From a virus (taxonomy: Duplodnaviria > Heunggongvirae > Uroviricota > Caudoviricetes): 50,138 bases of DNA. The stretch covers positions 1 through 50,138 of the IMG/VR virus record IMGVR_UViG_2877948078_000005; one strand, given 5' to 3'. Position numbers: made by a program. Below are positions 39,001-42,000 of the stretch, one piece after another (the stretch's first letter is position 1; every line of letters begins with the position of its first letter).

Positions 39001-42000
39001 GTCGTGTTATAAACCCAGCGAATTCCGCCATGCTCAGTGCCTGAATTCGTTTCATTCAGCCAGTAATGAAGCTGCTGCAACACAATTGCCTCATTCAGAC
39101 CAATACGGCATGCAAGATCACGATTTATCACAATGGGCTGGGATGTCATTAACAGGCTCATGCCGCACCTCCGAGATGCTTCATGTTTTTTCCGGAGCGA
39201 AAGGCTATAAGCGGCATACTGACGCGGTAATTACGGCCCAGCGGTTCACAAATCACCTTCTGACATTCACGGTCAACCAGGCTAACACGTAGAACATGCC
39301 CTGCAGGCGTGGTGTACCACTGACCCGGACGAGGACAACGGAAAGTCTGATTGGTAAAACGTTTGAAAATATTCCGGATCATTTGCGCCCCCTTGCCTCT
39401 GAAGGGTTCAGCGACAAATTTATGAGGCAGGCCAGCGCCGAAGCATCATTAATATAGTCATATAAGCTAACAGCCAGCGGAGATTCGGCTTTTGCCAACA
39501 TAGGATAAAGCTGCTGCAGCCAGACCTGATGAATTGATGAAATGTAGGAACAGAGAACGCTGGCGTTATGTGCAACGTCGCTCGGTACAGCGGGCTTTGA
39601 AAGCTGTTTCTCCATCTGGTTAAAGGCATTGATGTATGCCTCTTTGAACCGGGCAGCACGTTTACCAGTGAAGCCCATAGCAAGAAACGCAAAGCCGTCG
39701 CGGGTTATTTGATAGCAAGGAAGTTTGCGAGTACCGCCGTTGGGCTGGCGTACCAAAATTGATGTCTCCGCAAAATTGCGGGCACAAAACTCTGGAGAAC
39801 AATCCAAAATGCGGATCTTTTTCAGAACATCGTCATGACGTTTAGAGAAGAAGTCAGCAACAGCCAAAGAAGATGTAACAGCCTGACCATCAACGATGGC
39901 AATTTCAGGTTGAGAGAGGGTTGGGAGAGTAGTCATAGTGACAGCCCCGGTAGTCAGTTTTTTAGAAAACTCACCACATGGGACGCCAATCACAGAGGTG
40001 GTGAGACGTACAGGGTTGGCGTTACCGGAGACTACCGAACCCGGCCCGACCGAAGTCGGCCCTGTACGCCCCACCATAATTTGGGCGTAGCAATGCTCAT
40101 GACACGAAAAAACCGCATGAGCGCGGTTATGCTCAGTAATCAATTTCAGGACGCCAATCCCGGCCCCCGCTTTATAAGGTGCCGGAACAGTGTAACGTCC
40201 CGGAATTGCAGAATCAATATGCTGGTAGCGAATCATGGACGCACCTCCTTGTCAGAACCATTCAGCCTGGAATCAACAAGTGCAGCACCAAAAACAGCAT
40301 CACCTACACGGTCGTACAGTTTGCTGGCCAGCGGAGATTCAACGGCCTTAAGCATTGGATAAAGCTGGCTTGTCCAGATTTGATGGATTTCACGCAAATG
40401 CAGGTATACGCCTCTGGCGTTTCGTGCGACAGCTGACATATCAGACGCATCGGCACCTGATAAACTCTTCTCCATCAGGTTAAAGGCGTTGATGTATGCC
40501 TCTTTGAACCTGGCTGCACGTTTACCAGTGAAACCCATAGCAAGAAACGCAAAGCCGTCGCGGGTTATTTGATAGCAAGGTAGTTTGCGGCCTGTGCAAT
40601 CGGTGTAATCACTCACTGAAAAATTGCGGGCAGTGAATGATGCGGAACATTCAAGCGTGCGGATCTTTTTCAGTACATCGTCATGACGTTTGGAGAAGAA
40701 GTTGGCAACAGCCAGGGATGAAGTAACAGCCTGACCATCAACGATGGCAATTTCAGGTTGAGTGAGGGTTGGGATCGTAGCCATGATGGCAGCCTCTTTG
40801 GTGATTTTTAATAACTCACCACCAAGGCTTCTCACGGCAATAGGTGGTGAGACGTACAGGGGTGAGAAACCGGTCACCAAAGAACCCGGCCCAACCGAAG
40901 TTGGCCCTGCACGCCCCACCATAATTTGGGCGTAATGCTGCTCATGACACAAAAAAACCGCAAGAGCGCGGTTGTGCGCTTTGGTGAATTCCGGGTTCTC
41001 ACGCCCGGCACCCGCTTTATAAGGTGCCAGAACAGTGTAACGTCCCGGAATTGCAGAATCAATATGCTGGTGGTCCTTCACACTCAACAAAATCACGCCT
41101 GAATTTCCACAAAGGACTAAAGCACTCATGCGGGTAGTCTTTGCGAAGATAGATAACGCGCTGTGTTTCTGGCTCCCAACGAATAACATGAACATAAAGT
41201 CCTCTTCCGTCACGAAACCAGCGGTTAAGTTCCTGCACAACTCGCCCCCCACAGTCAGGTAAAGTTCTCTGTGGTTACTTACAGCCAGGTGATTTGGTAA
41301 TCTGCATTCATGCCGTAACAACAGGTGTTCAGCGACGCTGACCACCAGCTGTTGCGACAAACGGTTATTTGCCGTTAAACTGTTCATGCGTTAGTTTCTC
41401 CACAGACACAAAACGCCACGACGCCCGGAGCTGCACACTCGCGGGCGTCACTCTTTTCTGGAGCGCAAAAGATTTTGTAGACCAGTGCTGCATGCTCCTG
41501 GAGCTTCGAAATTGAAAGATACAGTTCGTCGTTAATTGCTGTCTTCTCATGCGGTTCCACTACACCGTCTTCGATTGCTGAACGAATCTGTCTGGAATAA
41601 CTGCCGATCTGTTCAATGACTTCCAGCAGACGCTGGTTAATATCGGCGTTGTCCACATCCTCGACGTCAGGAAGAGACACAAAGACGCCATTTGCTGACT
41701 GCGCCACAGCGTCAGCAATGAAGTGAGTTCCACCAGCACGTTGTAAAATCATTGCCCATCCCAGCGGGAAAATCTGATCGCCATCGGCACGAAGGCGATT
41801 GAATAAAGCGTTCTCTGTTACATCCAGCCACTCAGCTGCTTCAGCGTAACCACCCGGCAACGCCGCGATAGTTTTTCTGACAGCTTTCACGTACCACTCA
41901 GGCTGTTTTTCTACTTTCCAGTGATGCTTACCCACGGCTTACCTCCTTTTCCTGTGGTTTTAACTCATTCCGGTTTTGACTAGATTGAAAGCGAGCAGGA

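Follow-up and report, generated by a model that had tools for sequence, protein, structure and literature searches.

Tandem Rha-family genes of an Stx2 prophage overlie two isrK-C4 RNA modules of probable P4 type

The window analysed here is a whole stretch of viral DNA of 50,138 nucleotides (nt) (IMG/VR virus record IMGVR_UViG_2877948078_000005, positions 1 to 50,138), which is identical in sequence to the chromosome of Escherichia coli 2014C-4135 (NZ_CP027310.1) and carries a prophage encoding Shiga toxin 2 (Stx2). In the early-right operon of this prophage, two adjacent genes encode Rha-family proteins with a shared upstream region of about 100 amino acids (aa), and each shared region was found to contain the genes of two small RNAs (sRNAs), isrK and C4. 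We put at about 0.7 the probability that the locus consists of two tandem modules of the Eta/Kil (seqA-CI-seqC) type known from phage P4, which match isrK-orf45-anrP of Gifsy-1 and carry Rha as their cargo. The RNA genes, the antisense complementarities and their covariation, the conserved open frame across the RNA genes and the ATGA starts are established from sequence. Elements of this kind are already known; the locus holds two of them, which differ in RNA specificity. All features of the window described below lie on the minus strand unless marked otherwise.

Small RNA genes and antisense sites upstream of the Rha domains

A reading of the window made without database searches (hereafter the sequence-only reading) had described two adjacent genes as tandem paralogues ending in Rha-like domains, and this description was confirmed. 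Both open reading frames (ORFs) are present, long open frame 1 at 40233..41387 (384 aa) and long open frame 2 at 39379..40236 (285 aa), the peptide strings quoted for them were found, and their products are 61% identical across 283 aa (E 1e-115). The Phage_pRha domain spans residues 121-210 of the 285-aa ORF (E 7.6e-27) and 222-307 of the 384-aa ORF (E 1.3e-29), and scores exceeded the cut-offs of both the Rha family (Pfam PF09669, 94.2 and 103.1 bits against 29.9) and TIGR02681 (91.8 and 99.9 bits against 45.95). Long open frame 2 consists of a region matching Phage_ASH (the Ash region) and Rha2, while long open frame 1 consists of an out-of-frame overlap with a DUF4222 gene, then the Ash region, then Rha1. 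Within the long frames, Rha cores begin at internal ATG codons: the Rha1 core gene (40233..40784, 183 aa, Phage_pRha E 5.3e-30) starts at 40784, 8 nt past a Shine-Dalgarno (SD) sequence, and the Rha2 core gene (39379..39936, 185 aa, Pfam Phage_pRha E 3.3e-27) starts at 39936. In related leaders, the motif GAGGCTGCCATCATGGCTAC precedes the 'EAAIMAT' start of the Rha core. A P22_AR_C match in long open frame 1 (E 0.091) was under the cut-off and was disregarded.

The shared region upstream of the Rha domains is a homologous in-frame stretch, as the sequence-only reading had stated, but it is not unassignable: it corresponds to Pfam Phage_ASH together with the Rfam families isrK and C4. Phage_ASH (PF10554), whose type protein is P4 Eta, was matched with 42.8 and 34.6 bits against a cut-off of 26, at residues 15-110 and 117-212. 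An Rfam scan at gathering thresholds placed isrK-1 at 40951..41027 (63.6 bits) and isrK-2 at 40106..40182 (55.4 bits; RF01394, gathering score 50), and C4-1 at 40840..40926 (83.4 bits) and C4-2 at 39994..40081 (82.3 bits; RF01695, gathering score 45), both C4 matches covering the full model length (1-87). All isrK and C4 matches lie on the same strand as the ORFs. The scan for the c4-a1b1 model (RF03163) gave sub-threshold matches only, at 22.5 and 19.8 bits against a gathering score of 46.7. A terminator scan identified an intrinsic terminator in each isrK gene, at 40973-40956 with a U run in isrK-1 and at 40128-40111 in isrK-2. The AUG of C4-1 (40922-40920) is in the same frame as Rha1, and that of C4-2 (40077-40075) is in the same frame as Rha2.

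Both C4 genes have the architecture of the family, with a long closing stem, two internal hairpins, an exposed loop and a joining strand. The predicted folds of C4-1 (-44.2 kcal/mol, z -4.95) and C4-2 (-47.7 kcal/mol, z -6.02) are minimum free energy folds that match the model. Among 107 distinct C4 sequences, 96.8% of the pair cells were paired, and both sides had changed in 13 of the 25 pairs. Of the features expected for maturation by RNase P and 3' trimming to a stable RNA of some 80 nt, an acceptor-like stem followed by an ACCA-like sequence is visible. When the read-through leaders were folded, the C4 fold appeared, with an IsrK-C4 pairing in the module 1 centroid and with a local hairpin covering the SD and AUG too.

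Upstream of both isrK genes, a promoter-like site of the form TTGATT-17-TACACT ends 7 nt before the first base of the RNA. In module 1 the site occupies 41034..41062 (TTGATT 41062-41057, TACACT 41039-41034), and in module 2 it occupies 40189..40217 (TTGATT 40217-40212, TACACT 40194-40189). The same site was present in 61 of 65 distinct leader contexts, and two more had other hexamers at equal spacing. By analogy with related systems, it would act as the promoter of isrK.

The antisense sites were compared in 62 distinct leaders drawn from 80 IMG/VR loci, phage mEp460 and the window, and in a broad sample of 109 distinct loci with 58 different b' loops obtained by a C4 pattern scan of viral contigs (L084-L203). 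Two elements of C4, a loop of 12 nt (b') and a 3' joining strand of 7-8 nt (a'), have two complementary sites each. The sites 5' of C4 lie within IsrK, where a1 is in a hairpin loop and b1 in a single-stranded stretch, and the sites 3' of C4 lie before the Rha ATG, where a2 is followed by b2 over the SD in both modules. In module 1, the b' loop (40885-40874) and a' (40869-40862) of C4-1 face a1 GTGAGAA (41002-40996) and b1 TCACCAAAG (40987-40979) in isrK-1, and a target region at 40793..40835 with a2 GTGAGAA (40835-40829) and b2 TCACCAAAGAGG (40804-40793), which includes the Rha1 SD AAGAGG. In module 2, the b' loop (40040-40029) and a' (40023-40016) of C4-2 face a1 TTGGCGT (40157-40151) and b1 GATTACTGAGC (40141-40131), which pairs via G-U wobbles, in isrK-2, and a target region at 39945..39989 with a2 TTGGCGT (39989-39983) and b2 GACTACCGGGG (39955-39945), which lies over an SD-like GGGG located 8 nt before the Rha2 ATG.

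The specificity of module 1 can thus be written as a = GTGAGAA and b = TCACCAAAG(AGG), and that of module 2 as a = TTGGCGT and b = GACTACCGGGG. The predicted duplexes with the downstream targets amount to -8.9 (a'/a2) and -15.0 kcal/mol (b'/b2) in module 1 and to -10.2 and -15.3 kcal/mol in module 2. Over all cognate pairs of the window the values were -8.5 to -10.2 kcal/mol for a and -12.9 to -15.3 kcal/mol for b, whereas cross-module duplexes reached only -0.3 to -5.3 and -3.2 to -7.9 kcal/mol, respectively. The two modules therefore carry different C4/target pairs that are predicted not to cross-react, and they should be regulated independently.

Seven a-types and nine b-types occurred among the 62 leaders, in 20 combinations. 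Both a1 and a2 matched a' in all 20 combinations, and b1 and b2 matched b' in 19, the exception looking recombinant. In 71 of 76 cases of the broad sample, the b' loop and its own downstream site were complementary along 8 nt or more, compared with 15% of non-cognate pairs. A discordant module was seen at 3918-4238 of locus L055, the third of a three-module array, where the C4 loop GTTCTATGTTGA and b1 match and b2 is of another type, TCACCAAAGAGG; judging from these sites, the Rha SD of this recombinant module should escape its own C4. An exact-match search of the window for extra C4 targets returned one 10-nt copy of the module 1 b2 site, TCACCAAAGA, at 46518-46527 on the plus strand. This copy falls in the coding part of a leftward-operon ORF of 67 aa, roughly 35 nt past the start codon and not at a ribosome-binding site, and is probably a chance match.

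An open frame across the RNA genes

The upstream stretches might be purely untranslated sRNA leaders, in which case the 183- and 185-aa Rha cores would be the true proteins and the long ORFs annotation artefacts. Several observations agree with this explanation. The promoter-like site is inside the ORF and would start transcripts 3' of the ATG of the long ORF, a good SD, which is also the C4 target, lies 8 nt before the internal ATG, the starts annotated in RefSeq are inconsistent, and stops occur shortly 5' of the C4 AUG in Gifsy-1 and in about 20 of the 109 C4 loci. However, the Rha frame contained two stops in all over about 100 codons of the 62 leaders, compared with 191 and 318 in the other frames. 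It was open in 61 of the 62 leaders, while only 3-4% of dinucleotide shuffles of the leaders were open. In every one of the 62, the Rha AUG follows the C4 AUG at 138 or 141 nt, in frame and without an intervening stop. Insertions and deletions always net to a multiple of three and are locally compensated, a 1-nt difference in a' being offset by a 2-nt difference past C4. The first in-frame ATG lies 97-104 codons before the Rha ATG, just 5' of the promoter-like site, in 47 of 65 distinct contexts, and 46 of these ATGs form an ATGA overlap with the TGA stop of the gene before, frequently preceded by GGAGGT; this start is kept across several unrelated upstream contexts. Furthermore, the homologous eta of P4 is reported, in the passage of PMC10111431 that treats it, to be translated and to matter for anti-termination. 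Given this evidence, we consider untranslated leaders unlikely, and a frame selected to be open remains our preferred account.

The sequence-only reading had also pointed to stops or frameshifts in related phages as a sign of untranslated duplicated leaders. Such interruptions were essentially missing from close relatives (one of 62 leaders), whereas around a fifth of the wider C4 family, including Gifsy-1, has a stop shortly 5' of the C4 AUG. In the broad sample, the frame of the C4 AUG extended upstream without a stop for 50 codons or more in 89 of the 109 loci, versus 23 and 7 for the other frames. The stop in the other loci (about 20) is within about 20 codons 5' of the C4 AUG (at 46 in one of them), and most of these loci have only an ORF of 28-54 codons after the C4 AUG, as in Gifsy-1 orf45. 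One RNA family thus comes in two architectures, with either a long in-frame ORF or a short one.

The long frame of copy 2 begins at the module junction (40233..40250), where an SD-like AAGGAGGT (40250-40243) precedes the ORF2 ATG (40236-40234), which overlaps the ORF1 TGA (40235-40233). The long frame of copy 1 extends further. Its extra N-terminal extension of about 100 aa, noted in the sequence-only reading, is open in the 384-aa ORF, but the stretch overlaps out of frame a gene with family support of its own. This gene, at 41059..41238, encodes a 59-aa DUF4222 protein from a GTG start (Pfam PF13973 E 9.4e-14; PHROG 1343 E 1.9e-36) and is annotated in RefSeq. Its frame differs from that of ORF1, its stop falls within the -35 hexamer of module 1, and its homologues also exist without a leader behind them. 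The coupled start of module 1 lies 201 codons before the Rha1 ATG, across DUF4222. In all but one sampled variant of this DUF4222 context, the Ash-Rha frame is open (41059-41387 in the window) across the gene and back to the ATGA shared with the upstream gene ymfL. This openness could reflect selection on a 180-nt two-frame overlap, or simply the relatedness of closely related variants.

An open frame could also mean that each gene encodes a true two-domain protein, in which the Ash region of about 100 aa is folded and functions at the protein level and the RNA matches are secondary. The frame is indeed open and conserved, the region has a Pfam family and thousands of annotated proteins, and the ATGA-coupled starts come with SD-like sequences. 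However, identical nucleotides between compensating indels are read as FSPLYVSPPIAV in some relatives and as ISTPVRLTTNKVV in others, and the frame is regained further on. In the Ash part, the differences that separate the two copies are spread evenly over codon positions (25/29/32), with 8 synonymous and 43 non-synonymous codons, while those in the Rha domain fall 18/10/25, with 17 synonymous and 20 non-synonymous codons. Structure prediction of the N-terminal region, as suggested in the sequence-only reading, gave no confident fold: AlphaFold assigned a predicted local distance difference test score (pLDDT) of 23-33 to residues 1-133 of the 285-aa ORF and of 52-75 to its Rha part, and with a mean pLDDT of 46.6 from a shallow alignment of 10 sequences, shallow because nearly all database matches were at least 95% identical, the low confidence of the Ash part is weak evidence. 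Every conserved block of the Ash region is explained by the promoter-like site, by RNA helices in which changes are compensated, or by target sites of the antisense RNA. The notion of a novel protein domain was therefore not supported, as Ash is already named, its conservation is explained at the nucleotide level and its peptide is not conserved. We regard a folded Ash domain as quite improbable, and the best reading of the Ash part is selection for ribosome transit and an open frame.

The tandem arrangement itself is not peculiar to the window. Of 82 sources, made up of the window, mEp460 and 80 IMG/VR loci, a single module was present in 59, two in 18 and three in five. In 16 distinct arrays, both types were shared in only one of 21 module pairs. 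Two proteins, P0027 (496 aa, on 279 contigs) and P0001 (478 aa), each consist of two Ash-Rha modules fused with no stop between, and therefore the frame in some arrays runs through a full module into the next. That copy 2 is a decaying duplicate and the tandem arrangement functionally meaningless, as the label 'incomplete; missing N-terminus' given to 40227..39379 by the Prokaryotic Genome Annotation Pipeline (PGAP) might suggest, is hardly credible, since the ORF is intact, isrK-2 and C4-2 score above the gathering threshold, the a/b sites of copy 2 are internally matched yet unlike those of copy 1, the same module type is found as the sole copy in other phages, and arrays of two or three modules with distinct specificities occur in 23 of the 82 loci.

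In the RefSeq record NZ_CP027310.1, PGAP put the start of Rha1 at 41129, overlapping DUF4222 by 71 nt, and flagged the second gene as a pseudogene; neither isrK nor C4 is annotated at the locus. Thousands of database entries exist for such ORFs, under the names 'Rha family regulator' or 'peptidase' and with an Ash domain. The alternative raised in the sequence-only reading, that the genes are a known Roi/Ant variant, held insofar as they are of a known variety: Rha/Ash proteins have been recorded among Stx phages (PMC8951638), and P4 eta has been described together with the CI and seqA RNAs inside it (PMC10111431).

Relation to P4, Gifsy-1 and P1 and a proposed mechanism

The closest counterpart was found in P4. 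There the isrK model matches seqA and the C4 model matches the CI RNA, both inside the ORF of Eta (214 aa), in the same frame; Eta itself consists of Phage_ASH and an Icd-like domain with an internal EAAIMAT start as in the window genes. P4 and the window thus share the order and strand of isrK (seqA) and C4 (CI), one open frame over both RNAs, Phage_ASH, an internal EAAIMAT start whose SD is complementary to the C4/CI loop, and the position of the module 5' of replication genes. In the window, the P4-type nested frame spans the promoter-like site, isrK and C4 and is in frame with the internal start, and P4-type coupled starts of the long form are recognizable by sequence in the ATGA at 40236 (with AAGGAGGT) and at 41387. 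The two systems differ in their cargo past the internal start, which is Icd-like in P4 and Rha in the window, and in the number of modules, one in P4 and two with differing specificities in the window. In addition, P4 is a satellite with immunity by RNA, whereas the host element in the window, a lambdoid Stx2 prophage, has a CI repressor that is a protein. On these sequence features, the window modules are nearest to the P4 Eta/Kil arrangement, with Rha as cargo.

According to the passage of PMC10111431 on P4 (citing Forti 1999), a constitutive promoter is internal to eta, and its transcript ends early via CI/seqA interactions and yields CI. The same passage describes Kil as a truncated product, full-length Eta as translated only from an upstream late promoter, and Eta translation as coupled to the upstream gene and preventing termination. 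Such control, in which the antisense RNA brings about early termination and translation of the long form suppresses it, is known for P4 alone. In the region 8168-8812 (minus strand) of P4, RefSeq still has a protein, 'cI gene product (AA 1-137), transcriptional repressor', annotated where the CI RNA (C4 match 8507-8420) lies.

Gifsy-1 carries the same two RNAs, isrK and C4, the latter being STnc1160 within orf45. The IsrK of Gifsy-1 is made from a promoter of its own and ends at a leaky terminator, and the read-through mRNA is translationally silent until IsrK, acting in trans, pairs with the orf45 region, whereby orf45 and the coupled anrP are switched on (Hershko-Shalev et al. 2016, PMC4825925). 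The orf45 region contains the processed STnc1160, and a species of about 80 nt was demonstrated (PMC4825925). Gifsy-1 resembles the window in its a/b logic, in having the a-type of module 2, ATTGGCGT, and in an antirepressor-like regulator as cargo. It differs in that the 46-47 codons equivalent to orf45 are fused in frame to Rha in the window and the frame continues upstream. Moreover, AnrP, which belongs to the ORF6N proteins, is unlike the Rha proteins of the window (E 2.3 against Rha1), and the Gifsy-1 module follows antQ, while the window modules lie between cII and O.

A similar organization reportedly occurs in the immI region of P1 and P7, where Citron and Schuster (1990) are said to have described a c4 antisense RNA with a1 b1 / a2 b2 sites, icd and ant. 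In P1, the leader of the operon itself is processed to give the C4-family RNA, differences in specificity lead to heteroimmunity, and the cargo is of the antirepressor class. Like the window, P1 has two short recognition elements, each repeated 5' and 3' of the RNA, with b2 over a ribosome-binding site. In P1, b2 masks the ribosome-binding site of icd and ant is expressed by coupling, whereas b2 in the window covers the Rha SD itself. The window modules have no separate icd-like ORF; instead, the stretch of 46-47 codons that starts at the C4 AUG continues in frame into Rha.

Among Stx phages, the Eru6 reference phage Stx2a_WGPS2 matches the window region at 93%. Rha proteins with an Ash domain next to cI have been described in the phages 'Eru6/7/9', where Ash counts as a protein domain whose function is unknown, with no mention of the embedded sRNAs (PMC8951638). 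The window has the same genes as the Eru-type phages, with the module duplicated.

Based on these comparisons, we propose the following mechanism. By homology with the related systems, we infer that the promoter is active, that C4 is processed and acts as a repressor and that translation counteracts termination; the function of Rha is deduced likewise. Each module consists, in this order, of a promoter-like site, IsrK (77 nt, with its terminator and the a1/b1 sites as decoys), C4 (about 87 nt), a2/b2 and Rha. In the lysogen, the internal promoter would make IsrK, and read-through RNA would be processed to C4, as the cases of P1, P4 and Gifsy-1 suggest. C4 would then pair with a2/b2 and mask the Rha SD, so that Rha translation is blocked and termination is probably favoured, while IsrK may compete for C4 and thereby set a threshold for Rha synthesis. 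When transcription comes from pR, ribosomes coupled via the ATGA overlaps (41387, 40236, 39382 and 39161) would translate across IsrK and C4. As reported for P4 Eta, translation of the long frame would override the terminator and the antisense pairing, so that transcription reaches the replication genes, and it would also yield a longer Ash-Rha product. The Rha proteins are assumed, after Ant and AnrP, to be regulators of the antirepressor class.

Several points weigh against this interpretation. The authors of the Gifsy-1 study report IsrK as an activator that works via mRNA structure, and C4 (STnc1160) was not shown to be a repressor there (PMC4825925). The AUGA overlap of Gifsy-1 orf45 is out of frame with anrP, with a stop two codons 5' of the AUG, so the long frame is not universal. 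The promoter-like site matches the consensus at 8 of 12 positions, which is under the scan threshold, and it was unreported by the consensus promoter scan. The sampled relatives are mostly enterobacterial and mutually related, and the frame counts given above represent non-independent events. Module 1 has no start codon just 5' of its promoter, its frame opening first at 41387, across DUF4222, and coupled translation therefore appears less clear for module 1. The shallow AlphaFold alignment counts here as well. Finally, expression of the modules at this locus is a prediction from sequence: the literature searched on sRNAs and ribosome profiling (Ribo-seq) in enterohaemorrhagic E. coli (EHEC) contained no data on these RNAs, and one such EHEC study left out isrK and C4 for being within annotated genes.

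The pseudogene flag in RefSeq is false. If the modules are of the proposed kind, the Ash region can be annotated as a coding overlay of the promoter, IsrK and C4 in place of a domain of "unknown function". An Stx2 prophage would then contain two independently addressed antisense switches, each in control of a regulator of the antirepressor class, and these would offer small RNAs a way to adjust induction, replication and the amount of toxin. The family also provides a natural set of short covarying RNA-RNA recognition pairs. More speculatively, and on present evidence doubtfully, tandem arrays in Stx and other lambdoid prophages might act as a combinatorial system of RNA specificities, placed between pR and the replication genes, with C4 as a P4-like immunity factor acting in trans. 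C4 would in that case stop the expression of replication genes of an incoming or resident phage with the same a/b type, arrays would widen the range of exclusion, and IsrK, as a decoy, would give each module its own threshold of induction, with consequences for Stx2 release.

Gene order and prophage setting

The two modules lie between a CII-like gene and a replication gene, a position that the sequence-only reading had given correctly. The CII-like gene (41384..41935; RefSeq name ymfL) matches Pfam Phage_CP76 (PF06892, E 4.9e-14), and its TGA stop is shared with the ATG of the 384-aa ORF (ATGA at 41387-41384). On the 3' side, a gene of 74 aa at 39158..39382 (PHROG 1153, E 1.3e-45) has ATGA overlaps with both Rha2 (5') and the replication gene (3'). 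The latter, an O-like gene at 38169..39161, is named replication protein O in related Stx2a phages and mEp460, and it had no Pfam match in the scan of window proteins. The same reading had called this an unusual place for duplicated regulators; the slot proved ordinary, as single copies occupy it in mEp460, cdtI, ST64B and the Stx2a phages 1447 and WGPS2.

Stop-start overlaps are unbroken from ymfL through ORF1, ORF2 and the 74-aa gene to the O-like gene (region 38169-41387), with ATGA at 41387, 40236, 39382 and 39161, and the chain goes on to the PerC-like yfdN with GTGA at 38172. This arrangement suggests translational coupling along the entire early-right operon.

Elsewhere in the prophage, stx2A and stx2B were located at 32099..31140 and 31128..30859, respectively. 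Three tRNA genes (32441-32193) stand immediately before stx2A, and a full-length match to the sRNA STnc100 (30784-30572, 158.7 bits) lies directly 3' of stx2B.

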